Part shown: positions 2,436-34,084 of the stretch, in pieces | Layout of the letters: every line of letters starts with the position of its first letter | Numbering within the stretch: the first letter of the stretch is position 1 | Notes under the pieces: generated by a model | What the model saw: the letters and a program-made list of their open reading frames with translations, nothing else | What the model was told of the DNA's origin: nothing | Databases searched by the model: none | Source of the DNA: Prorocentrum cordatum | Lineage: Eukaryota | DNA: 64,000 bases | NCBI GenBank assembly: GCA_963575745.1 | Contig: CAUYUJ010000106.1 | Location: 1 to 64,000 of the forward strand | Direction of reading: 5' to 3' | Program-made: the position numbers and the translations under genes

Positions 2436-3473
2436 GTACCCGAGCTCCGTGCACGAAAGGTGTGCGCGTGCGAGGATGAACGATCGCGCGCGAGCTGCAG
2501 CTCGGCGGTCGCACCTCCTCCTCCTCCTCCTTCCCCGTTTCTCCCCCTCCTCCACCTCATCATCTTTCCGCCCTCACCTCCTTCTCATCAGCACCCCCAC
2601 TCACCCCCTCGTCATTTTAGGAAACGCCAACCAAGAAACTACAAATAACGCATAATCTAAATAAGAAAACGTGCAATCAGAAGGAAATCTGGTCATCAAA
2701 TTACAACGTTGCTCAAAAGAACAAGCCATTCTCAAAACAACATACCGTACACCGTTGTGCAAGCAAACCACAAAACTGCAACCACATGCATGTATGAAAC
2801 AAAACGTTGATCATGAAACCGCAACGTGGTGCAAAACAACAACATAAAAGTAACATCTGATCATACATTTATAACTTGGTGCAAAAAACTCAAAAACAAT
2901 ATTATATCATGAATATACAACGTGGCGCAAAAAACAAGCAAAACAACAATATGTTCATGCATATACAACGCGGCGCAACAAACTCACAAACACAAAGTCC
3001 CGATCATGAAAGCATAACGTGGCGCAACATCTACAATGAAAACGCATGTTTCTAATTCATATTAACCAGTGTTAACGCAAATTCAACATTTAGCATACTG
3101 TAGTGAGTGTCTATGTTAAATCAACTTAAACCAAGGTAAAGTTTAACTTGGGCGAGGTGTTTCGCATAACGTGAGCTTAACTTGAATTAGCCAAGCAAGA
3201 CAAACTTATATCACAAGCCATAACGTTGTACAAGCAAGGTAATTCGTGTTAAACAAATGTTATAAGCTGTATGTGATGCTATACGTGTTTAGGTCGATGT
3301 TGCAAGTGTAACTGTTTGTCGCTGTTATTAAGATGTTATAAGAGGTGATGTGCGGCTTATACATGATTGTGTAGAGGGTATAACTATGTATATCTAGCTA
3401 ACTCCAGTTTAAACCAAAGTTCATCTAAGTACGCGAACCATACCAGAAAGCTAGCCGCGGCAAGATTTCTGAT

Positions 3474-4112
3474 ATGGTTTACATAGGGGAGTGGGCCGGC
3501 CCACTCCCCTATGTAAACCATGAGCGCGCACGCCCGTTGTACGATTCTCGCACAATGTAAACTGGGAGTGCGCGCTCATGGTTTACATAGGGGAGTGGTG
3601 CGGCCCCACTACCCTATGTTAAACCATGAGCGCGCACCCCCACCTTACATCAACTTCGAGGAAGCATGGTGGTTGATGTAAAGTGGGTGTGCGCGCTCAT
3701 GGTTTACATAGGGGAGTGGGCCGGCCCACTCCCCTATGTAAACCATGAGCGCGCACTCCAGTTTTTACATTGTGCAGAGAATCCGTCCAACGGGCGTGCG
3801 CGCTTGTGCGCGCTCATGGTTTACATAGGGGAGTGGGCCAGCCCACTCCCCTATGTAAACCATACCAAATATTTTGCCGCGGCAAGATTTCTAGTATGGG
3901 TTACACAGGGGAGTGGGCCGGCCCACTCCCGTATGTAGATGTAAACCATCTCCAGAATATTTGCCGCGGCAAAGAAGCCGAGCCATGGTTTACATAGGGG
4001 AGTGGGCCAGCCCACTCCCCTATGTAAACCATACCAAATATTTTGCCGCGGCAAGATTTCTAGTATGGGTTACACAGGGGAGTGGGCCGGCCCACTCCCG
4101 TATGTAAACCAT
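3474..4112. repeat. Array of seven ~48-bp palindromes (atggtttacataggggagtgggcc|ggcccactcccctatgtaaaccat)
   Basis: Perfect copies at 3474-3521 and 3699-3746; variants at ~3578, 3816, 3896, 3985 and 4065. Confidence 0.92.
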
Positions 4113-7100
4113 ATCAGCAATCTTGACGCGGCAAGATTCCTGACATGGTTCACATACTTAGATGAATTTTGGTTTAAACTTGAGTTAGCTAGATATACAT
4201 AATCATAACCTCTACACAAACATGTATAAGCCGCACATCCACTCTTATAACATCTTAATAACAGCGACTACCAAATATAACGTAGACCCAATCACTTGCA
4301 ACATCAACATAAGCACGTATAACATCACACAAAGTTTTGATTTGTTTAGCATGAGTTACCGTGCTTGTAAACGTTTATGGCTTGTGATATAAGTTTATCT
4401 TGCTTTGTCAATTCAAGTTAAGTTCATGTTAAGCGAAAAACCTCGCTCGAGTTAAACTTTACCTTGGTTTACTTTGTTTTTAACATAAACCTTTACTAGA
4501 GTATGCTAAATGTTGAATTTGCGCTAACATTGGTTAACATGAATTAGAAAACATGCGTTTTCATTGTGGATGCTGCACCACGTTACTTTTTCATGATCGG
4601 GATTTTGTTTTTGTGAGTTTCGTTTGCGCAGCGTTGTATATGCATGAACATATTTTGTTGTTTTGTTTTTTGCACCACGCTGTATATTCATGATCTGATT
4701 TTTGGAGTTTTTTGCACCAAGTTATACATGCATGATCAGATGTTGTTTTTTTTATGTTGTTGCTTTGCACCACGTTGCGGTTTCACGACCAGAGTTTTGT
4801 TTCATACATGCATGTGGTTGCATTTTGGTTGTTTGTTTGCACAACGTTGTACGGTATGTTGTTTTTGAGAATGGCTTGGTTTTTTTTTTTGAGCAGCGTT
4901 GTAGTTTCATGACCAGGGTTTCTTTCGGATTGCAGGTTTTCTTATTTCGATTATGTGTTATTTGTAGTTTCTTGGTTGGCGTTTCCTAAAATGACGAGGG
5001 GGTGAGTGGGGGTGCTGATGAGAAGGAGGAAGGGCGGAAAGATGATTAGGTGGAAGAGGAGGGGGAGAAACGGGGAAGGAGGAGGAGGAGGAGGAGGTGC
5101 GACCGCCGAGCTGCAGCTCGCGCGCGATCGTTCATCCTCGCACGCGCACCCCTTTCGTGCACGGAGCTCTGGTATGGATCGCATAGTGGAGTGGGCCGGC
5201 CCACTCGCCTATATGACAAATACAGCAAGCCTCCGCGGCCGGATTTCTGGTATGGTTCACATAGGGGGGGCCAGCCCACTCGCCAATGTAACCAAAACAG
5301 GAAAACCTCCGCGGCCGGATATCCGGTATGGCTCACATGGGGGAGTGGGCTGGCCCGCTCGCTTATGTGACCAGTACAGACAGCCTCCGCAGGAGGATTC
5401 CTGGTATGGTTCACATAGGGGAGTGGGCCGGCCCACTCGCCTATGTGAGCGGTACAGAAAGCCTCCGCGGCTGGATTTCTGATATGTTTCACCTGTGGGA
5501 GTGGTTTCGCCCACTCGCCTATATAGAACACATGCTGAACCTTCTCGGCCGTGCGGTACTTATGGATACGGATGTATCTAAGCCTCTGTTCGGTTTATGT
5601 GTGAAAGCGGGTGTTTGTGTGAATGCCTACACTCGCATATACATACAAGTATGCATAGTTGTATGCGTGTAAGCGCATGTGGATGCATGTGAATGAATAT
5701 GTATTTTCGAGTGTATGTGTGAATGAATGTGCGAATGTGTGTGCGCACACACGTAGATGTAGAAGGCAGGTCCGCGTCGCGTCGACCCCGGCGTTGGTTG
5801 CCGACACCGCGTGGATCGTTCAACCTTGAACGATCGGCGGTTCCCCCAACGACAGATCTTTCGACGTCGAGCGATTCTGGGCCGCCGCCGGCGCTCAACG
5901 TTGAACGCCGGCGGCGGGGTCGCCGCCGGTCGACACGACGCGAACCTACCGTATGAGTGTTGTGGTATGCTTACACATATGTGTGCATATGATTGTGCGC
6001 GCGCGGATTGGCAGACTTTGTCCATGGCAGCGCATGTATATGTATGCGTGTACTTGAATGGACGGGCCCGCCCACGTTTTACGTACGTATATGTGTGTAT
6101 ACATGCATAAAAATACGTTTGTACATATGTGTATATGTACACATGTAAGCCGGAGCCTAGTATACATCAACTTTTGAAGATATGTCAGCAATACGTGCAC
6201 TTTGCACCCGCTATAAATTTAGCTGGGCACGCGGACATCATCGCCATCATCATCATCATCGTCGTCGTCGCCGTCGTCATCGTCATCATCGTCCGCATCG
6301 TCACCATCATCATCATCATCATCATCCCTCCCTCCTCCTCCTCCTCCTCCTCCTCCTGCTCGACGCCACCTCCTCGAAGAAGATCCCTGCTCCCCCTCAT
6401 CCTCCCTTTCCTCCCCGCTTCAATCTCCCGCTCCTTCTCTTCCTCCACCTTCTCCTCCCTCCCCTCTTGTCCTCCTTATCCTCCGCCACGCTTCCCTCGT
6501 CCGCCCTGAGCATCCATTCCCGAGCCCGAGCCACTTTGGGGTTCTCGTGGGCCGTCTCGGATCCTCAGGGGTCGCGTTGCCGCCACCCCCGGCCACCCCC
6601 TCCCAGGAGCCCGCGGGGGAGGGGGTTTCCGTCCCAGCCGGTTCTGCTGACGGTCCCAAGGCCCTGTAAGGAGCCTTCGGAATCCGAAAGCGGCTGAAAA
6701 CCTCCCGTCATGATTTTCGTTCGCGGCGCGGCGAGGTGCTCTTCCTTCCAAGTCGTTTTTGGGTCGCGGCCCTGGGGCCCTCTGAGGGCCCCCGGAGGCC
6801 GAAAACGGCCGAACCTCTTGTTCGCGGTGCGACGAGGCCTCGTCGCCCCGCTGGCCCGCTCGACGCGACGACGACGACGACGACGGCGGCGGCGACGACG
6901 ACGACGACCACGACGACGACGACGACGACGATGACGACGACGACGACGACGACGACGACGCCCGAGCGTCGTGCCACCCCCGGAGGGCGACACGACGCTC
7001 GGGCGCTCGGCCCGCATGGAGGGTTGCCGCGGGGGCAATGCGGTGCCAGGGCGCCGCGAACCAACGGGCGGGGAAGACAGGCACGGCGGCGGGCATCGAG

Positions 7101-7429
7101 GTTCGAGGAAGTTTTCGGCCCTGGGACCGTCGCACAATCGATCCGGGACCAACGAACTGCGTCGGATGCACCCCAGGAGGGTTCTGGGCGCCGATTTTGC
7201 GCGGATTTCGTTGACTTTGAAAAGGGGATGCACGCCGAGGTTCGAAGTTCGACTCTCGCGGATCGAGGTTCGAGGCTTCCTGGCCCTGGGGCCCCCCTCG
7301 TCGCCGCGGTCGGGCGCAGCTCGAAAAACTTTTGCGCTTGGACCCCGAAAGGGTCCGGGGACCCATTTTGAGGCTGGGGCCCGCAGGCCCTGGAGGCGGC
7401 GGGAAAGGCGGCGGCGGCGACGGCGGCGG

Positions 7430-8050
<621 letters not shown>

Positions 8051-8366: not shown

Positions 8367-9719
8367 ACCAGGAGGGGATTGCGAACCCCCCAATTCGCGG
8401 TGGCCCCGCTGACGGGCGCTGGCGCCCAAAGCCAGTGGACCTCGAAACAGCATCTCACCATGCTCTCCCTCCAGTGGACTTCCTCCCCTTCCATGCTCTT
8501 CCTGATCATCCTCCCCTCTTCCCCCGATGACGACGATGATGACGATGAGGAGGGTGGTGGTACTGATGATGACGGGCTCATCATGATCATCACCATCATC
8601 ATCATCACCATCATCATCATCTTCTTCACCACCAACACCAACACCACCATCACCCTCCACACCATCGTCACACATCATCATCATCATCATCATCGCCCTC
8701 GTCCAATGCCATCACCATCGTCATGATCATCACCACCATCATCAGGATCCATCACCGCAGGGGGCTGATTTCCAAAGCCCCGTTGGCAGGAACAGAAGCC
8801 CCGTTGGCAGGAACAGACGTTCCAGGGATGGCGAGGTCTAATCTGGGTCTGAGTATGACCCCATTCCGCTGGGCCCCCCAGCAGCCCTGGAAAGTGGCGA
8901 CAGTTTCGCAGATCGCAGCCCCGCACAGGGATGACCAGGCAGGAGGCAAACTGACACGCGGCGGCGAGCAAGGTGAGATGCAGGGGGGAAGAGGAAAGGA
9001 GGAACGAGGCGGGAAGGAGGAGGAGACGCGACCGCACTGCTCTATTCAAAACGAGAACCCAACGCAGGGGGGTTGGGAACAAACGCAAACATCCTTCAAA
9101 AGCCAACAGGACGTCGATGATGTTAGCTTCTTCGGGCTTTCCCAAGGGATGTCTTGGAGGCGTCTTGGCCGCCTTTGAGGCTATCTGGAGCTATCTGGAC
9201 TCCGTATTGGGCCGTGTGGGGTGCATCTCGGGGCCATGGCTCTCTAATTGGAGGAAAGGTCTACATGCACATTAGCACCGCAGTGCCGCGTGGCGAAAGA
9301 AGAATGTACACGACCACTTGACCTCTGAGAATCATGAACACGACCGCTGTGGCGGAACCGCTGCGGAGGGTTCCAGGCTCCACCGCGTCGGGCGTCCATG
9401 AAATCCGCCGACCCCTTGGGGGCCTCCAGGCGTGCGAGATTCCCCCCCAATAACCTCACCGGACAAGAACGGGAAGCGTCGCTTTAGCGTCGCTGTAGTC
9501 CACCAAACATGTGGAAAATGCTCTGTTGATGTTACGCCGCGCAGGTATGCCGTGGCGCGCGTGTCGGCGTGCGTCCGGGGTGTGATTTGCTGTGGTCCTG
9601 TGTGTTCTGCCGTGCTCCTGTTCTGCTGTGCTTCTGTGTTCTGCCGTGCCTGTGTGCTCTGTGTGTTCTGTCGTGCTCCTGTATCATGCGGTGGTCGTTT
9701 TGGCGGAGCTTCTGGGCGC

Positions 9720-11710
9720 GCACGGCAGAAAAAGATCAGGAGCACGGCAGAAGAGGCCCCAAGAGCGAAGGAGCACAGCAGAAAAAGACCAGGAACACTG
9801 CGAAATAGACCCGAAGAGCTAAGGAACACGGCAGAATAGGCCCCAAGAACGAAGGAGCACGGCTAAAAAAGATTGAAGCACGGCAGAACAAACCCCAATA
9901 ACTAAAAAGCACGGCAGAAAAAGACCAGGAGCACGGCAGAATAGACCCGACGAGCGGCGGAGTACGGCAGAAAAAGGCCAGGAGAACGGCAAAATATACC
10001 CCAAGAGCTAAGGAGCACGGCAAAATAGACCCCAAAGCGAAGGAGCACGGCAGAAACAGACCAAGAGCACGGCAGAATAGACCCGAAGAGCGAAGGAGCA
10101 CGGCAGAAAAAAAACAGGAGCACGGCAAAATAGGACCGAAGAGCTAAGGCGCACGGTAGAAACAAAACTCAGGGGCACGGCAGAATATGCCCGAAGAGCT
10201 GCCGAGCACAGCAGAAAAAAGACCATGAGCACGGCAGAATAGACCCCAAGAGCCAAGGAGCACGGTAGAGTAGGCCCCAAGAACGAGAAAAACGCCAGAA
10301 AAAAAGACCATGAGCACGGCAGAATAGACCCCACGAGCTAAGGAGCAAAGCAGAAAAAGACCGAAGCACGGCAGAATAGGCCAGAAGAGCCAAGGAGTAC
10401 GACAGAAAAATACCAGGAGCACGGCAGAATAGACCCGAAGAGTGAAGGAGCACGGCAGACTAGACCCCAAGAGCGAAGGAGCACGACAGAAAAAGACCAT
10501 GAGCACGGCAGAATGGACCCCACAAGCTCAGGAGCATGGCAGAAAAATACCAGGAGCACAGCAGAATAGGCCCCATGAGCGAAGGCGAAAGGCATAATAG
10601 ACCCGAAGAGCGAAGGATCACGGCAGAACAAAAACGATCAGGAGCACAGCAGCATAGGCCCCAAGAGCGAAGGCGCACGGCAGAAAAAGACCAGGAGCAC
10701 GGCAGAATAGACCCAAAGAGCAAAGGAGTGCGGCAGAATAGACCCCAAGAGCGACGGAGCAAGGCAGAACAAAACAGGAGCACGGCATAACAGACCCCAA
10801 CAGCTAAAAGGCACGGCATAAGAGGGCCCAAGAGCGAAGGAGCAGCAAAACAGACCAAGACCAGGAGCACGGCAAACTAGACCCCAAGAGCTAAAGAGCC
10901 CGGCATAATGGGCCCCAAGAGCAAAGGAGCACGGAAGAAGAAGACCAGGAACACGGCAGAACAAACCCCAATAACTAAAAAGCACAGCAGAAAAAAAAAC
11001 AGGAGCACGGCAACATACACCCCAAGAGCTGAGGAGCACGGCAGAATAGACCCAAGAGCGAAGGAGCACGGCAGAAAACAACCAGGAGCACGGCAGAATA
11101 GACCCCACAGCTGAGGAGCACGTCAGAAAATAGACCAGGAGCACGGCAGAATAGACCCGAAAAGCGAAGGAGCACAGCAGAACAAAAACCAAGAGCACTG
11201 CAGAATAGGCCAGAAGAGCTGCCGAGCACGCCAAAAAAGAAACGGAAGCACGACATAATAGGCCAGACGAGCCAATGAGTACGGCAGAATAGGCCCCAAG
11301 AGTGAAACAGACACCAGGAAAAGACCATGAGCACGGCAGAATAGACCCCAAAAGCTAAGGAGCACGGCAGAAAGAAAGACCAAAGCACGGCAGAATAGGT
11401 CCGAAGAGTGAAGGAGTACGACAGAAAAAGACCAGACTGAAGAATAGGCCAAAAGAGCGCCCCAAGAGCGAAAAAGACGCCAGCAGAAAGACCATGAGCA
11501 CGGCAGAATGGACCCCAACAACTCAGGAGCACGGCAGAACAATACCAGAAGCACGGCAGAATAGGCCCCATGAGCGAAGGCGCACAGCAGAAGAAAAAAA
11601 AACAGGAGCACGGCAGATTAGACCCCAAGAGCTAAGGAGCATGGCAGAAGAGGCCCCAAGAGCGAAGGAGCAAGGCAGAAAGAGACCAGGAGCACGGCAG
11701 AATAAACCCT
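9720..11710 (+). repeat. Degenerate purine-rich minisatellite, core ggagcacggcagaa, ~55-bp two-part unit (duplicate at ~54365-56350)
   Basis: Dozens of gagcacggcagaa cores alternating with tagaccccaagagc and aaagacca linkers. Confidence 0.9.
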
Positions 11711-13221
11711 AAGACCGAACGCGTATGTTTGATAATATCGATGTTACGAACATATCAATGTTGTGAGGATGTCTCAGGCGAAATCACATTTTGGGGTCGT
11801 CTCGAGGGCGATCCTGGGGGTCAGATTGGGGCTAATTTGGGGCCCTTTGGGGCCGTCCTGATGCCCTCCAAAATCATTGCAGTGCGATGTTAGACACCCT
11901 CATTTTTTGAGGAGCTGTCCAGGCGTGTCTCGAGGGTCTGTGGGGTCTCTCTTGGCCTGTCTGAGCGTTCTCTTTGATTGTCTTGGGGCTCTCTTGGCCA
12001 GTCTCGGGGCCTCTTCGGGCGCTCTGGGGGCCCTCTGGGCGCCTCTTGGGGGCCTCTTGCGGGTCTCTCGGGCCGCTTTGGGGGTCCACTGGGGGGCCTT
12101 CGGAGGCTCTCTTGGGCCGTTTTGAAGCCCTCCGTGAGCGATTCCAAGATGATGCTGGTTCGGAGTCCCCTCCGGAGCCGATGTTTTGAGGATGTCTCGA
12201 GCGAAACAACCATTTTCTGCGGCTGCCGCGCCCCTCCCGATTTTCTGAGGATGTCCCGAATAACAGCGCAATTCTTTATATGATAGGTAGTAAAACAACT
12301 TTTCCAACATATCACTTTTTGAGGATGTCTCGGGCGAAACGCTTTGACATTTTTCAACATCCCGATGTTCTGAGGATGTCTCGAGCGAAAACGATGTTTA
12401 ACAGAAAACGTCTTAAACGATAGCCTCCAGCATCTCTATTTTCGGAGGACGTCTCGAGCGAAATCGCTTTTTGGGGGGCATCCGCCAACGAAAATCCCGG
12501 TGCAATCCCGCACACCATATAGTAAGAGATTTTGAAAAACATGATGCAGATTCAGCCAGAACGTCCAGCTCGCTTCTCGTACCTCGAAGACGCTTCCCGT
12601 CAACCCGGTGCAGCGCCAAACCCTATATAGTAAGAGATTTGAATATATAGTGCAGATTCAGCCAGAACGTCCAGCTCGCTTCTCGTACCTCGAAGACGCT
12701 TCCCGTCATCCGCCAGGCCTTGATCATGGAGCAATCCCGAGCCCTTCCCCCCTCAGACTCCCCCCAATAAAAACATTTGAATCCGGAGTTTCGGTCTTCA
12801 GTGAACCCGACGATCCGCTCTGATTGCTAACATGGGCTGCGGGCCCCATGGAGACGGGACTCCCGCCTCAGACTTCCTCGCTATTCGCTCACAGGCTAGC
12901 CCCCCCCTCTGAGACATCCTCACGATTTGTACCCATGGGGTGCTCAAGTGCTATGCCTCCCAGAGTGCGCCGATGGCCCGCTCGGATTACTAACGTAAGC
13001 TGCTGGCGCAATAGTGAGGACGCGCCCGCTGGAAACTTCCTCCCGAACTCAGATACGCATGGTGAACGAGTGCGTGCGTGCGTGAGATGCTGATGACGAT
13101 GATGCTGATGGTTGTGATGATGATGTTGATGTTGTTGATGATGATGGTGATGATGATGATGATGGATGGATGGAGATGGTGGTGGTGGTGGTGGTGGTGA
13201 TGGTGATGGTGATGGTGATGG

Positions 13222-13253
<32 letters not shown>

Positions 13254-13870
13254 AAGAATGCGTGAATGAGTGTGATGACGGGGTGGGCTGGTGGGTGCGT
13301 GATGATGGTGGCGAGGATAACGATGGCGATTATGATAAGGAGGAGGATAATGATGAGGATGCTGATGCTGATGATAATCCCACCAGCTCCCTGTGCGCGA
13401 GTGATATAGGGGATACCTTCTGTTCAACCCCCTTCTTCCCCTTCGGAAAGGGGTTTGCCCCTCCCCCTACCCCCTGCCCCTGGGCCTGGATGGGGGAGGG
13501 GTGGGGGGCGATGGGCTGGGGCGTCCTTTTCGGTCCGTGGGAAGGTCATGTTGTGACACCCCTCGCGAGGATCGTGGGCCGGAGGGGGTGGACTGCAATA
13601 AATGATGCCCCCTTCTTTGATCGATGGCCTCGAAGACGGCCCCGAGAGACCTCCAAGACGGACACTTCGAACCTTCGGCTCCAAGACGCCCCCAAGGTGC
13701 CCCAGGGACCCCCAGGAAGCCCCCAAGAAAAACAAAGGGGTCGGCGATATGGCGTAAGCCTAAGGATCAGCGGGGGGTGCTGGGGCTTGTAGAGCTAGCT
13801 CGCACGCGTGGCACGGGCCCCCGATTTATGATATATAATGGGTGGAAGCGAGCGATGTTAGCTCGAAATG

Positions 13871-14463
13871 TTAGCTCGCAAACGCAGCATGAGCATCCGA
13901 CTTAATTCGCATGTCGAGGAGCGTGAGGGAACGTTTGCACCTCTCGTCCGGGGATGATGCCTCTGAATGATCGTCGATGCCGAGGATACCCCCGACCGCG
14001 TGACCAGCATTGCTCAAGTGGCGGACATAGAAATTCAGGTAATCTTCCCCGTCGCGCGTGCGGCCCCACGCCACCTTCAGCTCAACTTTGCCGAACCACC
14101 TCCATGGCTGGCGCTGATCATGGTGGCTAGCCAAATACCTGAAGCCATTCGTCTGCTGCTTATTAGCCCACGCACCAGTGATGTTGAGCGCCTTGATGTA
14201 CATGTCGGTCGCGCAATGTGCATGTCGGTCGCTTTGCACCTCCGCACCCACGCGAAGAAGAATCTCATCTGGGCCACATCTTTGCGGAATATTGATGAGC
14301 ACGTGCTTGCCGGTCCGTGCGATGTCAAAGCTCTGACCAAACATGTTCCGCATGTGTGGGTCACCAATGGCGCTGCCGGATGCGTCAAAGAACTGCGTTG
14401 GGCTGATCCACTTCTCGGGTGTCCAAGTGGCCCAGCTGAAGGGGTGCCCACTCAGGGTGTCCG
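13871..14463 (-). CDS. Haloperoxidase-like gene, segment 3: end of domain 2 plus C-terminal GDPH-motif (VWD-like) domain
   Basis: FSWATWTPEKWISPTQFF aligns with domain-1 LDWATWTPDHWIRPSAYY; followed by AIGDPHMRNMFGQSFDI...GGILGIDDH; stop at 13871-13873. Confidence 0.8.
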
Positions 14464-15517
14464 AATCCCACACGCCCTCTGGGCGTAGGTGGTTTAGGGA
14501 GCTTCCTCTTCCCCTTCGGGGAGGGGTTAATCCCTCCTCCCACCCCCTCCCCCGGACCTGGACGGGGGAGTCCGCGACGCGTTGGAGCGTCCAATACGGC
14601 CTCGGCGAGGAAGCCAAAATCATTGGTTTCACTAAGGTTTTGGCCCCATGTTGGCCTCCTGAGGGGGGGGAGCTAATTGAGCCCCCCCCCTTATGTGATC
14701 GATCTCCTCCAAGATGGCCCCAAGAGGCGCCCAGGAGGCCCCAAGAGGCACTGCGATGGCCCCATGTGGCCCCAAGAAGCCCCAAGAGGCCCCCAGGATG
14801 CCCCCAAGAGGCTCCCAAGAGACCACCACGAGGCCCCAAGAGACCCCCCAGAGGCATCCAATACGCTCCAAGAGGCCTCAGCGAGAATGCCCAAATCACT
14901 GATTTTACTAAGGTTTTGGCCACATTTGGGCCTCCTGGGGGGGGGGGCACTGCTTCAGATGACTCCACGAGCGCCTGGGAGAGCCCAAGATGACCTCCAA
15001 GATGGCTCAAGATATCCCAAGATGCCTCAAGATGGCTCCCACGATGCTCCAAGAGGCCCCAAGACCGCTTCAAGACGACTCCAAGTGGCCAAAGAGCTCC
15101 CCTCCCCCAGTTGGCCCCGATTCTTCCAAAACCTCACGAAAATTCATGTTTTGGGCTTGCTCGCCTTTTCGCTTTCGATGGCCATCCGAGGCTTCAAGGT
15201 GACTCCAAGATGGCCCAAGAGGTCTCCAAGGGCGCTCCCAAGGCTCCCAAGAGCGCTTCAAGAGGGCCCCAAGAGGCGCCCAGGAGGCCCCAGGAGGCCC
15301 CAACAGGCGCCCCAGAGGCCTCCACGAGGCCCCCAAGAGACCCCCAAGAGGCCCAAGACGCTCTGAGAGGCGTCCGGGACCGCCAGGAGGCCCCCAAGAT
15401 GCTCCAAGAGGCCTCCACTGGGGTTCCTTCCTCTGTGTGCTGCCCACTTCCCTGATCGAGGCACTTCCTCTGGGCATCGTTTCTGGATGGGCTGGCGGGG
15501 TTGCGCGAAGCGTCTAG
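14464..15517. mobile_element. 1054-bp AAT-bounded non-autonomous insertion (or non-canonical intron) in the haloperoxidase CDS
   Basis: AAT at 14464-14466 and 15518-15520; precise removal gives TTC AAT T|CG GAC (F-N-S-D) in frame; interior is ccccaagagg-type low-complexity repeat. Confidence 0.8.
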
Positions 15518-16129
15518 AATTGAACGACTGGATCTTGGCTGCGGCGCGCGCCCTGATCGCGGATGCGGATGCCGCGTCGCAGCCGTACGTCTCGGCCAAG
15601 AAGTCGGGCAACTTCGACTCCACGATTCTCCGCCCGAGCGCCAAACCAGCGCGGTTATCCGTCGCATAGTGCACGCCCGCGAAGGTGCGGAAGAACGCGA
15701 CAGAGAAGTCCAGGAGCCGCACCTCCTCGCGCTGCGCGGGGGTGAGGATGGCAACGACGTCCAACCACGAGGATATGCTGGAGGCGGCGGAATGCATGGC
15801 GGGCCAGGCCGGGTGCACAGGGCAGCCCTCGGTGTACGCGGTGAAGTCTTCGGCGCTGTTCAGAGGCTTGGCGGCCACGAAGTCGGCCATCATCTGCTTG
15901 GCGCGCATGGAGGCACCGGGAAGCTCGCCCTGGATGATTCCGTAAGCGACCTCCTCGGGTCGCGCGCGACCGACAGCCCACTTGCTCGCGAAGCAGGCGG
16001 GCGACACCTCGGCGATCGCCCAACCGATAATCCTTCCCAAAGCCACCGGGCCGTTAACAAACTCGACACGGCTTGCGCAGCTGGGCTGGTTGAAGATGTC
16101 CGGGTCCAGCGTCAGCGACATGCTCTGCA
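15518..16129 (-). CDS. Haloperoxidase-like gene, segment 2: catalytic half of domain 2
   Basis: KWAVGRARPEE, HPAWPAMHSAA and RTFAGVHYATD match the three PAP2/vanadium-haloperoxidase motifs; 612 bp, open. Confidence 0.88.
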
Positions 16130-17799
16130 AATTCGCCGGCCCAACGGGCCAGAGGAGTGCTAAGATCTCCGGCAACGGTTTAATAATATTCTACTTCGCG
16201 CGCGAGTGGCGGCCCCTTGGGGTCCCCGGACGAAAAGTACCCCGGCCGATCCCCGGCGGATCCCCGGGCGATCCCCTGCCAGGTCTCCCAGAAAGCTTCA
16301 GGGGAAGACAATTTTTCGACACCCCTCACGAGGATCGTGGCTTCCGAGGGGGGAGCCGCAATCGATCACCCCTCCTCTCGCCCCCGCGAGCTTCCCAAGA
16401 GGCTCCAGGGGCCCCCGAGACGCCGCCAAGGAGCTCCAAAAGGCCTCCAAACAGCTCCCAAGAGGCCCTTAAGAGCCCCACAAGAGGCTTCAAAGCCGCT
16501 CCCATGTGCTCCCAAGAGGCCCCATCCGCCCAAAAAAGCGTTTCTAAGAGGCTCCACCCGCTCCCCAGAGCCTCCCAAGAGGCTCCACGGGCCTTCAAAA
16601 CGCCGCCACGCAGCCTCAAAAACCCTAAAGAAGCCCCCAAGAGGTCCCCAAGACGCCCCCAAGAGGCCCCACAGGCTTCCAAGACGCTCCCGAGACGCCT
16701 GCCAAGATACTCCTGCGACGCCGAATTCACGTCGAGCCGAAACGGCGCACCGCCGAATCGTGAGCGAGAGTTCTTTTTGCTGCGGCCCCTCTTGCCCTGG
16801 CTTCATGAAGTCACACCCTCTCTACGCTCTACGCGTTCTCGCGCTCCCCTCAGTGGTTCCAGCGCCCCGCCGACGGATCAGCGACAGGCCCCCGATAGCG
16901 AGATCGCACGCTCCCTGGGCGGGGTGGGCGAGCGGAGGTCGACGCATCCCCGCCTGAGCCTAACTATCCCCCGCCTCTGCCATCGCTCGGACGACCCTTC
17001 CCCGGTGCACTGCTTGGTTTCGCGTGTGTCTTTCCTCAGGAGGATCTTCTGGAGGTGGCCTCGCCGCTCTTTCTGGGTAGGTCCCCCTCGGATTTTCCAG
17101 GGCGTCCGGACCTCAATCCTGGAATTGGTGGCAAAATGCCCACATCTCCGATCCTTAAGTCCCAAATTGAGAGTAACGAAACTGCCACATGGATATAGCC
17201 TGAAAAGGTCTCACATTTTCGACATCCGTGGACGGCGCACTCAAATGCGGCGCAGGTTTCCTGGAGCTGGCCTCGCCGAAGCAGAAGCACACGGCCGAGC
17301 GAGGCCGAGCCCCTCGACGTCGCCGCTGGCCGGTGCGCCTCCGGACCAGGGGCTCTCCAGCGTGCTCCGGGGGAGACGGGGGGCACGGGTCTTGCTAGCC
17401 ATCGCTCGGACGTCCACTCCCCGTCTACTCGTCGGCTTCGCGCGCTTACTCTTCGCAGAGTGGTCCAGGACACTCCTCGATGGCCCTCGTCGAGTAAAAA
17501 TGTACACGCCCGAGCGATGCCAAATGAGACCAAGATGGCGCCGCTCGCTTGCTGCCAACAAGGGGCTGCCGACTCCACACGCGCGTGCACACGCACACAC
17601 AAAAGCAGGCACAAGCAGCATTCACAGGCTTTTTGCGCCATTGGCCGAGTGACGTCACACCACGGCGAGAGCCGTAGAGTGGGCTACAAAAACTGGCCGA
17701 ACTCGAGCGCGCACACACAAGAAAGCACACTCACGAGCACACACACACACGACACACACACACACACACACACACGACACACACACACAACAACACACA

Positions 17800-17862
<63 letters not shown>

Positions 17863-18660
17863 TGGCGGCGCGCACAAGGGGGTGGAGGGAGGGGGGAGGG
17901 CTTCGTAGGAAGCTGTTTCTTAGAAGGCGCCGGCCTTATATCTACAGATCAGGCCCGCACCTTCTAAGAAGCAGGGGTGCTTCTAAGAAACCCTCCCCCC
18001 TCCCCCCCCCTCCGGGCGCCGCCCTCGAGGCTCCCCAGAGAGCCCCAAGGGCCGCAACGCCGACAACAGCCCTCCAAGATGGTTCAAGAGTGCTCCGAGA
18101 TGCCACGCGCTCGCTTCAAGACGTCCAAGATGGCTCCCAGACGCCCCAACAGGCCCCCAAGAGGCGTCCCAAGAGGGCATTAAGAGGACAAAATCGTGAG
18201 ATTCCTTTGGCAAAACGTATATTTTTAGCAGATTCGCCACTTGAGCTTTCGCAACGTCAAAAGCGGCCCAACAGGCCCCCAAGATCGCCCAAGACGGCCC
18301 AAAAGGCCCCCAAGAGAGCCCAATACCGCCCCAGAGGGCCCCAAGACGACCCAATAGGCCTCCAAGACAACCCAAGAGGCCCCCAAGACGGCTCCAAGAG
18401 GTGGTGCAGACGGGAGACCCGCACGGATATTTCGAGACCTCGGCCCCGAGAGGCCCCCAGGAGCGCCCAAGAGGCCCTCGAAAGGCTCCCAAGAGGCCCC
18501 AAGAGGCCCCCAAGAGGCCCTAAGATGCCCCTGCGAGGCCCTCAGGAGGCCCCCACGAGGCCCCCAAGCGGCCCCAGGAGGCCCCCAAATGCCCTCCCAA
18601 GCACGCAAGCAAGTGCCAGCGATGCTACAATATGGGCCGGCGGAATGAGCGAAGCGATTG
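16130..18660. mobile_element. 2531-bp AAT-bounded insertion (with nested repeats) in the haloperoxidase CDS
   Basis: AAT at 16130-16132 and 18661-18663; removal gives ATG GAT TAT T|TG CAG AGC ATG (MDYLQSM), collinear with domain-1 TSYLSSM; the 17400-17540 portion is homologous to 28459-28585. Confidence 0.82.
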
Positions 18661-20542
18661 AATAATCCATGACCTGCTCCGTCGGAAAGAACGGGGGGAA
18701 GTCAGCTCGGACGCGTTGGGCAGATTGCTCCATCGTATCTCCGTCGAAGAGTGGATGCACCGACATGATTTCTTCTGTTCTGCGGTTTTGAATCCTCAGA
18801 AGCTGGGCTGCCGCCACCTCCTCGAACTCCGCCCAAAATCTACTCTTGTCGGCGGCGTCTGCGTCGTCCGCGTGCGTCGGCTTGAATGCAACATTCGTGT
18901 CGAAACCCAAGTCGGCAGCGACTTGTGCAAATGAAACGTTCGCGCCCAAGTGGGACACAGCAGCCTGGACCTGGTCGTTACCGTGAAACCCGCGGACGCT
19001 GACGGCGGCGGTCTCCCTCAAGCTGTCGGAGGCTCCGCCGCTCCGCGGGTAACATGCGCCTTCAGCAGCTTTTTCAAAACGATACTCGGTGCACCCGTCG
19101 TTGCCCGCCAGCGCCCTCCGTTGGGCGGCTCGCGGGCTGCCGCGGGATCCTCCGGCCCGCAGCGCCACAGACGGCTTCGCAATAGCCGCAATCGTATCTG
19201 TGGAATACAAGGATGCTCCGCTCTGGCTCTTGGGCAGGACGCGATCCGCTTGTCGGCGTCGGAGTGAGGAGTAGTACGCGGAGGGGCGAATCCAATGGTC
19301 GGGCGTCCAAGTTGCCCAATCCAGAACCTCCATCGACGCGATCTTGGTCTGCACATGCGACCTGATCGTGGCCTTGCTGGCGGCGTCGCAACCGTACTTC
19401 TCCGAGAGGTAGTCCGGCAACTTCTCCCTCACGATCCTCTGGCCGAGCGCCAGGCCGGCACGGTTGTCAGAATCGTAGTGAACGCCTGCGAACGTGCGGA
19501 AGTAAGCAACAGAGTAATCCAGGAGTCGCACCTCATTACGCTGCGCTGGGGTCAGGAGGGCCACGACGTCGAGCCAAGTCGACAGAGAGGAGGCCGCCGA
19601 ATGCATAGCCGGCCAAGCTGGGTGCACGGGGCACCCTTCTGAATAGGCGGTAAAAGACTCGCGCGTAGTCAAGCCCATGCCGTCCACCATCGCCCTGACG
19701 TTGGCTGGGGCCTGGCTCAATCCCCCCTGGCTGAGGTTGTACGCAACCTCCTCGGGCCGCGCGCGGCCGACGTACCACTTGCACCCGAAGGCGGCGGGCG
19801 ACACCTCTGCGATCGCCCAACCGATAAGCCTCCCCAGAGCCACCGGGCCGTTCACAAACTCGACCGTGCTCGTGCAACTGGCCTGGCCGAAGATTTCCGG
19901 GTCCATTGTGAGCGCCATGCTGCTCAAATAGCTCGTGATCTGCTCCGTAGGAAACTGCGTGGGGAAGTCCGCACGGACGCGCTGGGCGGACTGCTCCATC
20001 GTGTCCCCGGCGAAGAGCGGATGCACGGACATGATATCCCGAGTGAGGGTCCCGTTCCTCCTCAGAAGTTGGGCCGTCACCACATCCTCGAACTCATTCC
20101 AGAAGCTGGCCTGGTCTGTTGCGTCCGCGTCGTCCGCATGCGTCGGCCTGTACGCGGCGTTCGTATCGAAGGCCAGATCCGCTGCAAGGTGGCCAAACGA
20201 AACGCTATCTCCCAAGTAGGACACTGCGCGCTGGACCTGGTCGTTTTCGAAGCCACGGACGCTGACGGCGGCGGTGTCAGCGAGGCTGTCAGAAGCTCCG
20301 CCATCCCTTGGATAGCACGCAGACGGGGCAGCCTTGGCGAATCGGAACGTGCTGCAACTGTCGGTGGCCTCCTGGCGCGAGGGAAGGAAAACCTGTAAAA
20401 GTTGAATGTCCTGCGCACTGACGTTGTCACCTTGCTGGGCGCGACTTTCCCACAGTACTTGGCCGCACACGTAACAAGTCAGCAAATTCTGGATAAGGAG
20501 TGCGCGGTGGCGTCCGTGCATGATGAAAAGCATGTGGGTCAT
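18661..20542 (-). CDS. Haloperoxidase-like gene, segment 1: leader, complete vanadium-haloperoxidase-like domain 1, linker, N-half of domain 2
   Basis: KWYVGRARPEE, HPAWPAMHSAA, RTFAGVHYDSD; internal repeat DSCSTFRFAKAA vs DGCTEYRFEKAA. Start codon uncertain; a possible acceptor TTTTACAG at 20393-20400 is an alternative. Confidence 0.88.
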
Positions 20543-20567
20543 CGTCGTGGTGTCGAACCGGAAGTGG

Positions 20568-20578
20568 CCTGAGCCAAA
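20568..20578 (-). other. Probable relic dinoflagellate spliced-leader fragment
   Basis: Minus strand CAG|TTTGGCTCAGG, 10/11 match to the SL 3' end TTTGGCTCAAG, 25 nt upstream of the ATG at 20542. Confidence 0.55.
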
Positions 20579-20959
20579 CTGATGCCCCCGAGTAACGCCA
20601 GCTTCGTGTTACCAAAGCCAGAATCTGCAGTAACGTACGCTTGGTGTGCCAAATACAAAATTGCGCGGCCAGGTTCGCGCTCCCGAGGCCAGAATCCCTC
20701 GTAACATACACATACACAAAATTCGCGCTCCCAAGGACAGAACCCAATTGAAATGCACTAGAATTGCGCCCCCGGAGCCAGATCCCGTCCTAATGTACGA
20801 CTGCGGCGTGCACGGCCGAGCGTACGAGTACGGCTACGTACGGCTACTAGTACGACTGCGGCGTGCACGGCCGAGCGTACGAGTGCAGCTACGTACGGCT
20901 ACTAGTACGCCCCGCGGTTGTACTAGTAGGAGGAAGTAGGCCTACTAGTACGACGACCG

Positions 20960-22620
20960 GGCTAAGCAAGCCTATTCTGAGTGTCCCAGGCATGCCCGCG
21001 CGCGTGCGATCGCCGCGCCTCGTCGCAGCAGGGCCTGTCGCGTCGGCGAAGAGGAATTGGCATGTTGGCTGGGGAAGCCCAAATGCAGAACTGGCGCGAA
21101 CAACTTCTGTTTTGAATTCAGCATGCGGCTTCCTGGTTGCAGCTGCGCTGCCCAACGGCCCGGGCGCGCCCGTTCGCGCATTCGCGCGTCCGCGCGCCGT
21201 GTCTGGTCATAGCAGGTTATGTTCTGTCGGAATAAAGAAAGCAGCATGTTGGCTAGGGAAGCCCATGGGAAGCCTTAGCGCGAAAAGCTTTGGTTTTGAC
21301 TTCAACATGCGGTTTCCTGCGCCAGACAACAATGTCCGAGAACTCGGGCATGCCCGTGCGCGTGCGCGCGCCGCGTCTTGCCACGTCAGGTTCTGTTTTG
21401 TCGGAATAGAGAAGTCGGCGCGTTGGCCGGGGAAAACCCAAGGCCAGACTTAGCTCGGAAAGCGCCGGGCTTGACCTCAACATGCGGTTTCCTTGATCGG
21501 ACTGCATTGTCGACCGGCCCGGGCATGCTTGCGCGAGCGCGTGCGCGCGTTTCGCGCCTGTGCATCCCAAGTTCTGTTTCTGGTCGAAGCTGAGGAGTCG
21601 GCATGCTGGCGGGGGAAATTCAGGGGACAACTTAGCGAGAACAACTTTGGTTTTGGCTTGAACGCGCAGTGTCACGGTTCGAGCCGCGTTGTCGCTTAAC
21701 CTGGGCATGCCCGCGCGCGGGCGCGCGCGCACGCGCTGTGTTTCTTGTCGCATCAGCTTCTGCGTGGTCGGAATAAAGGAATCGGCATGTTGGCCGGGGG
21801 CGCCCGAGTGACCCCTTAGCGCGAAATCGTGTTGTTTTGACTTCCACATGCATCTTGCCTGCTTCGCATCTTATTGTCGAACAGCCTGGGCATGCCCGCG
21901 CGCGCGCCGTGGCTCGTAATGGCAAAGTACTGTAACAATGAAGTTGAGAAGGCGACATGTGGGCTGGGGAAGACCATAGGAAGTCTTAGCGCCAAAAACT
22001 TTGGTTTGAGATTCAGCATGCGGTTTCCTCCGCCGAACCGCATTATCCAACAGCCTGGGCATGCTCGCGCGCGCGCCGTGTCTTGCAACGCCAGGGTCTG
22101 CATTGTCGGAATGAAGAGGTCGCCATGCTGGCCGGGGAAATCCAAGGGGAACCTTAGCGCGCAACGCCTCGGTTTTGACTCCAACATGCAGTGTCCTGGT
22201 TCGAACCGCATGGTCGAACGGCCTGGTTATGCCCGCGCGCGCGCATGCGCACGCGCGCCGCGTCTTACCGCATGCGCACGCGCGCCGTCGTGGGAATAAA
22301 GAAATCGGCGCGCTGGCTGGGGAACTTTCTCCAGGGGCGCCTCAGCGCAAACGCGTTTGGTGTTGACTTCAACTTGTCCTTTCTACATTGAATCGCATGT
22401 TCCAGCGGCCTGGGCAGACCCGCGAGCGCGCCGCGCTCCGTGCATTGTGACGGCGGGTTCTGCGTTATCGGCACAGAGATGTAGCCGTGCTGGGGTTGGA
22501 AGCCCAAGGGGCGCATTAGCGCTGGATGTTATGCCTGTGGCATCAACTTGAAAGTGCTCCCTTTCGAAGCGCACTTGCCGCGTCGCCAGGGCGCGCCAGC
22601 GCGCGCGTGCGCGCGGTTTC
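20960..22620 (+). repeat. Highly degenerate ~175-bp tandem repeat
   Basis: Recurring gggcatgcccgcgcg...gtcggaata...ggcatgttggccgggg...cttagcgcgaaa...ttttgacttcaacatgc; gggcatg-type starts near 20989, 21346, 21521, 21703, 21888 and 22057. Confidence 0.8.
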
Positions 22621-27510: not shown

Positions 27511-30500
27511 TTCCACTTTCTCATGCGGGCGACGCGCGTCGCGCGAGTAGTGATGCGGGCCCTGGCGCGCGATGTGCATTGCAGGCAACGTGGGTGTTCG
27601 CGAAGGCGGACGCATCTCAGGCAATGCATCTGGCGGGGGGGCCCGTGAGTGGCATTTTGTTATGTTAAATGTTTTCGGATGGAATTGCCCGCAGTTTATC
27701 TCCCCAGATGTGCGCGGCGAGCTTGGCACGCCCCATGCCGCGCACAACGTGGGTTCTGGGGATAGTTTGATTTTTGTAACCCGATCGCAAGTTGAAAATC
27801 GATTCCCGCGTCGGCCGATGCGTCTGCGCGATCGGGCCGTTCGCATGGGGGCGAACATTCTGAGCATTTGCGCAGATCTCGGAAGCTACTGCGGGGGGGG
27901 CCCGTGCTGCAGAGCCGTCGTTTTGCGGCTACCTGAAGAGCTTCGCCGCTTGTGCAGCCGCCCCCGTGTCCACCCCAGGGCCGAGCGTCCGATCGCGGAG
28001 TGCTTGTGTAAAGCGCCCGATCGCGCAGCATTCCAGCGTGAAATTGGCTGACTGGTCGACGGAATGGTTCACTGTTTGACTGGTTGATCGGTCTGGCTGG
28101 TTGGCTGGCTGGCTGGTTGGATGACTTGTTGATTGGTCGATTCATGGACTGTCTCATCGGTGGCGCTTCGCAGATTGGTTCTCTGGGGCCGCGGGGTGGG
28201 GGCCCAGGAGGGGGCGGCGGAAGGCGAGGGGCGCGCCGACGTGGGGGGGTCACTCAGGGGGCGACGGGCACGTCGGAGGCGACGAGGGGGGCGGGAGCGG
28301 GCCCGGCGAGAGGCAAGGGAACCGGCGAGAGGGCAGGGCGAGGACGGGGCCACCTGCACGGAGGGCGCCGTCGAGCGGCCGCCTGGGGCGGACAGATCCT
28401 GCCCCCCCCAGCAGCGCCCGCGTCCGAAGGACTAGGTGCGTGGAGGTGACCTTGCCGTCGCTCGGACGTCCACTTCCCGTGCATTTGTCGGTTTCGTGCG
28501 TGTGTTTTTTGCTCGATGGTCCAGGATGGTCCTCGATGGTCGTCGCCGAGAAAGAAGGCACACGTCCGAGCGATACCAAGTGACAGGCGCTCCCAGACGA
28601 ACGAGGACAGTGCCAGAGGGATGGGGCGAAGTGCGGCCTGCCGCAGTCTCTTCGGCATCGCGGCCCAGGAAGCGCGCCCCCTCCGCAGTTCAGAAGGTCG
28701 GGGCCCGGGGATCGCGGGCCCCGCGGAGCGGGTGACGGGTCGTGGCTCGGGGTGCGCGGGCCAGCCCCGCGAGGGCGCAGGTCCATGGGGCGTTGCGCCG
28801 CACCACAGCTCTGGTTTGGAAGCCCGAAATAGGCACGGAAAAAATGGGTACAATGCCCAACAGCAAATGTTGTCGCAAACCAGCAGCGGCCGCTGTTGGG
28901 CAGGCGGCCTTCTGTCTCGAATGGACACAGGCCGCGGCGGCGTGGACAGCGAGTCCTGTTCAAAATGAGCAAGAACTGCTGATGGGCATTGTACCCATTC
29001 TTGCCGTGCCCATTTCGGGCGTCCAGATCTGGGAGCGCAGGCCCGTTGCTTCTCACGAAGATCTCAGCCGCGGGTGCGCGCCCCCACGGTCTCTCACCGG
29101 GGGGCGTCTTTGCCTTCGGGGCGCGGGCTCTGCGCGTGCAGGGCGGCTCTGGGACGGCAAGAGGCGGGGCCACGTCTCGCGGAGGGGGGCGTCACTCTTG
29201 CTCTGCACGGGAGGGCGCGACCTGCGACCGCGTCGCTCGGGGGGTGCTGGGCCGCGTGTCTCGCCCGGGCGGCCGAGTCCCGCACGCCCCATCGAACCTC
29301 ACCATGCACAGTTGAAAGGACAACGGGGTGCAACGTTCCGACCTCCGCATCGCGGAAACGAAGCAAGCTTCGGCAGGTCGTTGCAAGAAGAGCGCCTGTC
29401 TTTGCAAGTATCCGATGTTCACCCACCCACTGACAACATGCTCAGCACCTGGCGCAATGCAGTGTCGCAGCCTGGTGCCCCCGAAGCTGGGCTCGGGGGT
29501 CGGGCCTCCTAATCAACGGTTGGTTACGGACATCTGTAGTGGCGGCCAGCCGACGACAGAGAGAGACGGAGGCACCTGCACCAGTGACAGCAGGGCAACC
29601 GAGCAAAAACATCATTCCTCCCCCTCCTCCCCCTCCTCCCCCTCTGCCTCGTCCTCTTCGCGTGACGGGAGGGGGCGGCACGGGAGCAACAAGCATGGAA
29701 GGCTTGCTCCTCCTCCTCGTCTTTCCCTCCCCCATCGTACGTCCAGGGACCGCCTGGCCAGAGCGAGCGACACGGTCATGCGGCATCGAGGGCGTGTCCC
29801 CTCATCGCCCGTGCACGCCTCTTTCGCGCCTGTCCCGGAAGCCCTCTCGCTGCACCTTGGTGCTGCTCTTTGTGCTCGTCCTTTCGCTGTTCCTTCCATC
29901 CGCCTCCTGCCCGTTGCCTTCGCTCCGTCCTCGTGCCTGGTTGCATCGATGGAGATCGCAAGGTTCACGTGACTGGCCCAGCGAATGACAGGAGCGTGGC
30001 TTGGCGCCTCCCGACAGCACAGTGAAGTCTATGCTGGCACTGTGCGCGCGCCAAACACGCGCGCACAGTGACCGCGCTGATATGAACTGCAGAACGCACA
30101 TCAATATACAGATTGCGCGCTCCAGTGAATTCTCAATGCGACGTTCACGCCTCCTCTAGAAGCAGAGGGGGAATCGTTCCCAATTCAGGAGGCCGCAGGA
30201 CGCCCAGGACAGGCCCCAGGGATCCCCAGGAGATTCCCAGGAGGCTCCCAGGAGGCCCCGGGCGGCCCCCTATCAGAACGTGTCAAGTTAATACACATCT
30301 GGTGCCGATTCGTTGATTTTTTCTGCTCTTGTGCCCCCCCCCATTTTGGGGGGCCAAGACGGCCACATGTTAGATATCCCCCCCTGGGAGCCCCAAGAGG
30401 CTTCAGGAAGCCCCAGGTGGGGTCCAGGAGGCCACAGGAAGCCCAGGAGGAAGCCCTGGGAGGTCCCCAGGAGGCCCCAGGAGGCCCTTGCAACTCGGAG

Positions 30501-34030: not shown

Positions 34031-34084
<54 letters not shown>

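Follow-up and report, generated by a model that had tools for sequence, protein, structure and literature searches.

A minus-strand gene in a 64,000-nucleotide (nt) stretch of the Prorocentrum cordatum genome (contig CAUYUJ010000106.1, positions 1–64,000; hereafter the window) is interrupted by two long insertions that lack the usual splice-site dinucleotides, which raises the question of how its coding sequence is restored, if it is restored at all. The gene (13871–20542) encodes a two-domain protein of the PAP2 superfamily, and the insertions E1 (1054 nt) and E2 (2531 nt) occupy positions 14464–15517 and 16130–18660, with AAT directly after each, in the register of a first-pass annotation of this DNA. 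In our judgement, E1 and E2 are probably non-autonomous, hairpin-ended transposons that target RAAT and are removed from the pre-mRNA together with one copy of the target site, in the manner of the introner elements of Amoebophrya but in a core dinoflagellate.

Deletion of E1 and E2, each with one copy of its flanking repeat, left a stop-free stretch of 1050 amino acids (aa), and the joined frame ran from the ATG at 20542 to the stop codon at 13871–13873 (1882 + 612 + 593 = 3087 nt). The coordinates, the flanks and the 3087-nt stop-free open reading frame (ORF) of the first-pass annotation were thereby confirmed by deletion and translation. Exon 1 (18661–20542, minus strand) contains the start codon (20540–20542), domain 1 in full and the beginning of domain 2, with a 3-nt ambiguity at its low boundary. 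Exon 2 (15518–16129, minus strand), with both boundaries ambiguous by 3–4 nt, encodes the PAP2 core of domain 2 and scored 28.5 bits against the Pfam family PF01569 (PAP2), above the cut-off of 27.2; domain 1 scored 22.6 bits, under the same cut-off. Exon 3 (13871–14463, minus strand) encodes a C-terminal region without a Pfam family and ends with the stop codon. A comparison by sequence of the host protein with solved structures gave no match. The E2 joint lies inside a conserved block that is free of gaps both in the protein's own domain 1 and in 20 homologues, and the homologue alignment places the E1 joint in a linker of variable length. Judged from sequence, the joined frame is ancestral.

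The ends of the insertions define the possible cut points. E1 is flanked by a perfect 4-nt repeat, GAAT at 14463–14466 on the left and GAAT at 15517–15520 on the right, and E1 proper covers 14467–15516 (plus strand). E2 proper (16133–18659, plus strand) is preceded by AAAT at 16129–16132 and followed by GAAT at 18660–18663, a repeat of three perfect bases and one mismatch; the joint starts from 16129 with an ambiguity of 3, and the G at 18660 goes with the element. Because the joined contigs described below lack the G of 18660, the left AAAT is the E2 copy that is kept in the transcript. The AAT direct repeat of the first-pass annotation is thus real as a flanking repeat, and its length has been revised to 4 nt in E1 and to 3 nt plus one mismatch in E2. 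These repeats allow five equivalent cut registers for E1 (in mRNA sense TA..TC, CT..TT, TC..AT, TT..GA and AT..GG) and four for E2 (CA..TT, TC..AT, TT..AA and AT..GA). A GT, GC or GA..AG pair in mRNA sense was found in 0 of 5 E1 registers and 0 of 4 E2 registers, and the earlier description of both insertions as non-GT-AG holds in every equivalent register. The absence of any register with G[T/C/A]..AG argues that a cue different from ordinary splice-site dinucleotides determines where the cuts fall.

A search of public sequencing runs with exon 1 returned 22 runs containing part of this exon, and contigs from four of them (X1, X5, X9 and X20) were compared with positions 13800–21000. The joint 14462→15517, which skips 1054 nt, was present at a depth of 171.8 in X1, 133.3 in X5 and 9.45 in X9, and was not seen in X20. 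The joint 16129→18661, which skips 2531 nt, was present in all four runs at depths of 125 (X1), 113.8 (X5), 9.01 (X9) and 6.94 (X20). Exact joins thus come from four studies for E2 and three for E1. Both are the joins predicted by the first-pass annotation, and the canonical alternative that would have spoken against it (CAG|GT...CAG|AGC) was not among the 15 joints listed of 133. A single X1 contig spans 18661–20475, and exon 2 is linked on both sides in contigs of X1 and X5. Exon bins reached a depth of 187 in X1 and 247 in X5, and the skipped element bins had depths of 0 to 15.5 and 0 to 8.1, respectively; in this respect both runs are RNA-like. X9, with 50 million records, repeats at a depth of 2,247–75,695 and a uniform exon depth of ~9, is probably genomic DNA. 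X1 and X5 have no cover on 20548–21000 and X9 has little cover on 16692–17414; neither region was used as evidence.

The gene belongs to a duplicated locus, which helps to assign the joined contigs to their source. Positions 8822–19259 recur at 53465–64000, the window end, with 98.4–98.6% identity, and the segmental duplication therefore measures at least 10.4 kb, with copies ~44.65 kb apart and clipped by the window end. Both insertions are present in both copies: in copy 2, E1 lies at 59131–60186 (plus strand, 99.6% identical) and E2 at 60799–63401 (plus strand, 96.2% identical, with 73 extra bases), both in the register of the first-pass annotation, which starts with AAT. The two copies agree to the base on both insertions, and the shared positions indicate that the insertions are older than the duplication. 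Copies 1 and 2 differ at 5 of 1801 exon positions (0.28%), at 100 of 8628 non-exon positions (Fisher p 2e-4) and at 2 of 1054 positions of E1 (0.19%); divergence is ~1.4% upstream of the gene and 0.2–0.4% over the gene body including the elements, which suggests that the gene region has been homogenised between copies.

At the five listed sites that distinguish the copies (13830, 13833, 13904, 13931 and 14306), the joined contig of X1 has the letters of copy 2 in 5 of 5 cases, and no other letters were seen there in X1. A contig of X5 continues past exon 2 into an E1-like end, which it follows for 20 nt until the two diverge (loose end 15498); this indicates that a filled copy is transcribed. 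The first-pass annotation had left open whether the elements are spliced non-canonically, excised precisely from DNA or simply inactivating; the exact joins with copy-2 letters contradict inactivation, and non-canonical removal from RNA is the best supported of the three.

An uninterrupted form of the gene was found in a close relative. P0225, a 1018-aa 'unnamed protein product [Prorocentrum cordatum]', is the best named relative of the exon-2 protein (95% over exon 2); its alignment with the joined window protein begins at the exon 1 methionine and shows 951 of 1015 residues identical (94%), with no gap and with both junction peptides present. Against Pfam PAP2 it scored 39.5 bits in two stretches. 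The joined contigs of X9 and X20 are ~3% divergent from the window (17–20 other letters per ~550–670-nt piece) and have in common a 1-nt insertion at 13918, and the C-terminus of P0225 is altered as this insertion predicts. According to the available text of the P. cordatum genome report (Dougan et al. 2023, PMC10666404), the pipeline behind the published gene models had been adjusted for G-C and G-A donors. Since a pipeline of this kind would probably not join across E1 or E2, P0225 probably reflects an uninterrupted genomic copy of the X9 type, and the empty sites in a close relative mark E1 and E2 as insertions. Of 26 listed changes that separate the window and divergent types, 17 are synonymous and 9 non-synonymous. 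Constraint has therefore acted on the gene at some point in these lineages, a result that does not single out the branch after the insertions.

E1 extends from the left end CCCACACGCCCTCTGGGCG to the right end GTTGCGCGAAGCGTCTA and consists mostly of CCAAGAGGCC arrays inside; E2 extends from TCGCCGGCCCAACGGGCCAGAGG to GGCGGAATGAGCGAAGCGATT, with an interior of 10–11-nt CCAAGAGGCC arrays, a CA microsatellite and a nested palindrome. Alignment of E1 with E2 showed that the termini are unrelated and that only the CCAAGAGGCC arrays align. What the two elements have in common is the RAAT repeat, a left hairpin and the motif GCGAAGC near the right end. The left hairpin is GC-rich, has a triloop and starts 5–6 nt inside the left end, at 14472–14486 in E1 (ACGCCC-TCT-GGGCGT, plus strand, arms 14472–14477 and 14481–14486) and at 16138–16150 in E2 (GGCCC-AAC-GGGCC, plus strand, arms 16138–16142 and 16146–16150). 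For E1, the fold of this segment had a z-score of −3.38 as DNA (1 of 200 shuffles) and −2.31 as RNA (4 of 200). Of 9138 sampled window positions, 184 (~2%) had such a hairpin within 12 nt, with a perfect stem of 5 bp and a loop of 3 nt.

In E2, the left terminus pairs with the tract just before GCGAAGC. The left arm CGCCGGCCCA (16134–16143, plus strand) and its partner TGGGCCGGCG (18633–18642) form a perfect match of 10 nt that 0 of 2000 shuffles reached, and the end duplex has an energy of −43.3 kcal/mol versus −29.5 ± 4.3 kcal/mol in shuffles; the left-terminal/right-subterminal inverted repeat measures 10–13 nt in all. GCGAAGC is known as a specially stable DNA mini-hairpin. It is located at 18649–18655 in E2, 4 nt ahead of the last base of the element, and at 15505–15511 in E1, 5 nt ahead (both plus strand). 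With 10 plus-strand and 12 minus-strand occurrences in the window versus ~7.7 expected per strand, the motif is about as frequent as chance, and the signal is therefore its position near the right end, not its presence. The matched end architecture claimed in the first-pass annotation accordingly stands for the left hairpins, for the position of GCGAAGC and for the end complementarity of E2. The motif lies on the strand opposite the mRNA, and the transcript has GCUUCGC; for these ends, a hairpin was predicted by neither the RNA nor the DNA nearest-neighbour model. On account of its place on the non-transcribed strand, we assign GCGAAGC to transposition, as a putative hairpin of single-stranded DNA, rather than to splicing. 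In mRNA sense, each intron is predicted to carry a stable hairpin at its 3′ end (−15.1 and −15.0 kcal/mol, values matched by 4 and 12 of 200 shuffles, respectively).

A scan of 13 ORFs (5 of E1 and 8 of E2) revealed no transposase-like Pfam family; the sole Pfam match, DUF1148 in E1, scored 16.9 bits against a cut-off of 25 and was read as noise. Inside E2, the segment 17864–18023 is a nested palindrome with arms of 31–33 nt that are 79–84% complementary and an inner 27-nt pair, and it resembles a small inverted-repeat element inserted into E2. It follows a CA/GCAC microsatellite at 17704–17862.

To place E2 among other loci, metagenome contigs were scanned with 21 bases of its right end as the query, which includes GCGAAGC, so that the presence of the motif in the matches is by construction. 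The scan returned 13 contigs representing 12 distinct sites, which have the right end in common up to ...GCGAAGCGATT (the last 21 bases by construction). The four bases that follow are AAAT at 8 of the 12 sites and GAAT, AAAG, GAAG and AATA at one each; the following two bases are A at 9 and 8 of the 12 sites, and the flanks further out are unrelated. Two of the copies are complete, L010 (1042 nt) and L012 (775 nt); both show the E2 left end (TCGCCGGCCCAACGGGCCAGAGG...) and AAAT at both sides. Loose ends of X1 and X20 contigs revealed more E2-type ends at other loci, with AAAT before one left end and AAT after one right end. These data show that E2 belongs to a non-autonomous family whose members vary in length and have conserved ends, with a strictly A/T-rich target against a genomic background of 60% G+C. 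The right-hand AAAT may be a duplicated target or the last four bases of the element itself, two possibilities that look the same in these data. In X9, four bins with ends of E1 and E2 had a mean depth of 1,182–4,649 versus ~9 on exons, which suggests, as a rough figure from bin means, that each kind of end is present in hundreds to thousands of copies. The earlier claim of a mobile-element family thus holds for E2, with the same ends at 12 distinct sites, and is in keeping with the high X9 depth on the ends of both elements; it is limited in that E1 and E2 share motifs and their termini cannot be aligned.

Within the window, GCGAAGC adjoins AAT only at E1, E2 and their duplicates, and a fuzzy search for the four ends yielded no others in the window or in the metagenome loci. 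Viral contigs gave 0 matches to either E2 end, the whole window had no match in Rfam, and none of the window ORFs scanned (35 of the 98 with a length of 180 aa or more, and 9 others) contained a Rep or helicase domain.

E2-type right ends with a long open frame next to them (L001, L004, L005, L011, L013 and the window) showed an apparent bias: in 6 of 6 cases the frame is opposite the GCGAAGC strand and the element is inside or downstream of the frame. Among these frames, only that of L013 was checked as a real protein. It encodes ribosomal protein S14 (L013:35–481), with its best named matches in the ochrophyte stramenopiles Rhizochromulina (92%) and Heterosigma (90%). No dinoflagellate name was present among the 120 matches listed, in which names are sparse, and this runs counter to the picture of a single organism.

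An E1-like left end (AAT followed by CCCACC...) lies just downstream of the stop codon of the gene, at 13379–13500 and on to ~13860. After it come the G-rich hairpin segment of E1 (83% identical to E1 positions 44–107) and CCAAGAGG-type repeats, with no GCGAAGC right end. The divergent transcript type (X20) loses its match to the window at 13860, beside a 9-nt direct repeat GTTAGCTCG (13857–13865 and 13870–13878). Degenerate 10–11-nt CCAAGAGGCC arrays are also located at 11970–12132, 28451–28583, 33158–33260 and 49438–49562; such arrays reach a depth of 75,695 in X9 versus an exon depth of ~9 and constitute a very abundant genomic repeat.

The following sequence of events would account for the locus. 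A transposon inserted into RAAT within the coding sequence, which left the repeat at both sides. The filled gene is then transcribed throughout, as the exon-2-to-E1 contig documents for X5 and as is presumed for X1. The element and exactly one repeat copy would be removed from the RNA, bringing back the pre-insertion frame; the product of this step is present in the contigs, and the step itself is proposed. The structure of the element, not the splice-site dinucleotides, would set the cut points, and the likeliest cue would be the element's own end structures, which may bring the two repeat copies together, in E2 via the inverted repeat; a cue of this kind has been proposed for the introner elements of Amoebophrya. 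The wider proposal that core dinoflagellates harbour a hidden class of introns, namely hairpin-ended transposons that target RAAT, with their own excision signal and a removal pathway that takes one target-site copy along and is blind to splice-site dinucleotides (an endonuclease plus ligase, or a strongly re-tooled, structure-guided spliceosome), is speculative, and we regard it as rather doubtful.

Several observations weigh against removal from RNA. All of the run evidence consists of assembled contigs, not reads, and X1 and X5 are RNA by guess. X20, the only run on record as RNA, yielded a divergent joined contig (26 other letters in 833), and because this type is joined in X9, which is probably DNA, X20 provides no evidence on splicing. 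The uninterrupted form in a relative (P0225 and X9) demonstrates that empty copies of this multi-copy gene are real. At 15975–15987, X1 has two exon-2 types at about equal depth; the non-window type (104.2 of 210.9) is absent from both copies and carries three changes common to X5, X9 and X20, indicating at least one further expressed gene copy, which may be filled or empty. E2-type ends at other loci occur in the RNA-like contigs, which means that removal is not universal or that precursor RNA or DNA is present. Pairing between the ends of E1 is no better than chance (4 nt, a match that 1973 of 2000 shuffles attained; −27.2 versus −28.6 ± 4.4 kcal/mol), so that this part of the matched end architecture falls and a structure-based mechanism would have to work without a common inverted repeat. 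In mRNA sense, a fold was not predicted for the 5′ ends of the two introns (z-scores of −0.93 and +1.21). Finally, conservation specific to the exons between the two copies was considered and rejected, as E1 is as similar as the exons and the gene body is uniform.

The main rival explanation draws on several of these points. It holds that the filled copies are dead or silent and that the joined transcripts come from an uninterrupted paralogue outside the window, and we consider it unlikely. Such a form exists in P. cordatum as P0225 and is present at normal exon depth in the DNA-like X9; the cluster of P0225 comprises 16 member sequences, which makes this a multi-copy family; an exon-2 type found in neither window copy is expressed in X1; and the two filled copies show no exon-specific constraint between them. 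The joined contig of X1, however, has only the letters of copy 2 at the five distinguishing sites. As copies 1 and 2 are both filled, a copy that is closer to copy 2 than copy 1 is should itself be filled, barring gene conversion or excision. The known empty form is ~3% divergent, unlike the joined contigs of X1 and X5, which have 0–6 other letters versus the window, and the X5 contig that crosses from exon 2 into E1 shows transcription of a filled copy.

Removal at the level of DNA would yield the same product. Under this explanation, which appears decidedly improbable, E1 and E2 are excised precisely in some cells or copies, either seamlessly by a transposase or by site-specific recombination of the RAAT copies, and the repaired copies are transcribed. 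Transposons of the HUH type, which move as single-stranded DNA, excise seamlessly. The ends of E1 and E2 have a similar overall look, with subterminal hairpins, a target that is short and fixed, and no inverted repeat at the termini, and this look may also liken them to rolling-circle elements. Excision from DNA would also fit the product, which is exactly the pre-insertion sequence, a hallmark of seamless excision, as well as the position of GCGAAGC on the non-transcribed strand and the presence in X9 of both the joined form and a contig across the junction of E1 and exon 2. Against it, both assembled copies are filled, the joined form in X9 belongs to the 3%-divergent type, as would be expected of an old empty allele rather than of a recent excision, and the E1 and E2 ORFs scanned contain no transposase.

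An artefact, either a mis-assembly that placed repeats in an intact gene or template switching by reverse transcriptase at short repeats, is very improbable. The element interiors are highly repetitive, and template switching typically produces apparent non-canonical introns bordered by short direct repeats. The two copies nevertheless agree on both insertions to the base, and X9, an independent run, contains the junction of E1 and exon 2 (15472–15555, depth 6.06) with 0 differences. The joined form is the only form at a depth of 125–172 in X1 and 114–133 in X5, from two studies, which a sporadic artefact acting over 1–2.5 kb and 3–4-nt repeats would not produce. DNA elimination of the ciliate type is unlikely, since the standard code gives an open frame, G+C in the window is ~60% and the named match is from a dinoflagellate.

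Removal of E1 and E2 from RNA has its closest parallel in Amoebophrya. The available text of the genome report on strains A25 and A120 describes introner elements without GT-AG, with 3–5-nt direct repeats over the boundaries and 8–20-nt inverted repeats, which are repeated in the genome, contain no transposase and are spliced by a mechanism given as unknown (Farhat et al. 2021, PMC7789003). E2 fits every one of these features, and E1 fits them except for the inverted repeat. The introns analysed in that text were restricted to 40–1000 nt and average 120–240 nt, whereas those described here measure 1.05 and 2.53 kb. Amoebophrya is a syndinean parasite, and the host here belongs to a core, free-living dinoflagellate lineage. 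The inverted-repeat motifs given in that text (TTA..., TAT...) also differ from those of the present elements, which have in addition a right end of GCGAAGC with a 4–5-nt tail and a fixed RAAT target. Because of these other motifs and of the named match in Prorocentrum, Amoebophrya itself was rejected as the host. In one supplementary file of the report (PMC7789003), GCGAAGC, GCTTCGC and GGCCGGCG had no occurrence.

Introners of core dinoflagellates differ in their splice sites. As far as the available text goes, those of Symbiodinium and Polarella derive from DNA transposons, have 4-nt target-site duplications and include recent lineage-specific gains (Roy et al., bioRxiv 10.1101/2020.10.14.339549). 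Transposon insertion with a target-site duplication is a feature seen here also, in the 4-nt RAAT and in the empty form (P0225, X9). In the introners of that text, the duplication (GHNN, AGGH) and/or the element end give G[T/C/A]..AG, whereas RAAT (ATTY in mRNA) gives no such sites. For P. cordatum itself, the available text of the genome report (Dougan et al. 2023, PMC10666404) counts 'introner elements' that are defined by inverted repeats of 8–20 nt and direct repeats of 3–5 nt no more than 30 bases from an intron end, a pattern that E2 fits. The survey in that text was of annotated introns, and with gene models adjusted for G-C and G-A donors, introns of the E1 and E2 kind were probably not modelled. 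Boundaries other than GT/GC/GA-AG are put at up to 67% in Amoebophrya in the available text of a 2024 review (PMC11453091), which mentions none for core dinoflagellates, and the introns of Emiliania and other haptophytes in the available text of PMC4028052 are GC-AG only; a haptophyte host was rejected on this ground and on that of the named match in Prorocentrum. In the literature outside subscription journals, we found no report of introns like E1 and E2 in Prorocentrum or other core dinoflagellates.

The ends of E2 also resemble those of another class of transposons. In non-autonomous Helitron2/Helentron elements, the 5′ terminus is complementary to a 3′-subterminal tract that is followed by a hairpin and a short tail, and the target is a T-T or A-T dinucleotide. 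In E2, the 5′ end likewise complements a 3′-subterminal tract, after which come a short hairpin motif and a tail, with no inverted repeat at the very ends, a likeness of architecture only. E1 differs in having no asymmetric inverted repeat, and the target of both elements is RAAT, not a dinucleotide. Helitrons, according to the available text of PMC12130899, make no target-site duplication. By contrast, a 4-nt repeat flanks E1, L010, L012 and nearly E2, although a terminal AAAT borne by the element would look alike. Nonconventional introns of euglenids and the introns of the tunicate Fritillaria derived from miniature inverted-repeat transposable elements (MITEs) likewise lack GT-AG and show border repeats and end-pairing, and a transposon origin has been discussed for them. 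They belong to unrelated lineages and have other sequence motifs.

If E1 and E2 are indeed removed from RNA, gene models of the very large dinoflagellate genomes would be incomplete wherever such elements sit, as annotation limited to G[T/C/A]-AG would miss the elements and call their host genes broken. Transposons would gain a cost-free route into coding sequence, which bears on the origin of introns, and the Amoebophrya type of intron mechanism would become testable in a host-free, culturable, bloom-forming dinoflagellate. A RAAT duplication, a left triloop hairpin and GCGAAGC with a 4–5-nt tail together provide a signature that can be searched for.

Other features of the window lie apart from the gene. 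An uninterrupted open frame of 3058 codons occupies 38368–47541 on the minus strand, with no Pfam family at E ≤ 0.001. Large tandem arrays are located at 49640–53576, with a period near 90–100 nt, and at 33416–36538, with a period of ~1 kb. Positions 1–3521 and 4065–7515 form an inverted duplication with 90–92% identity.

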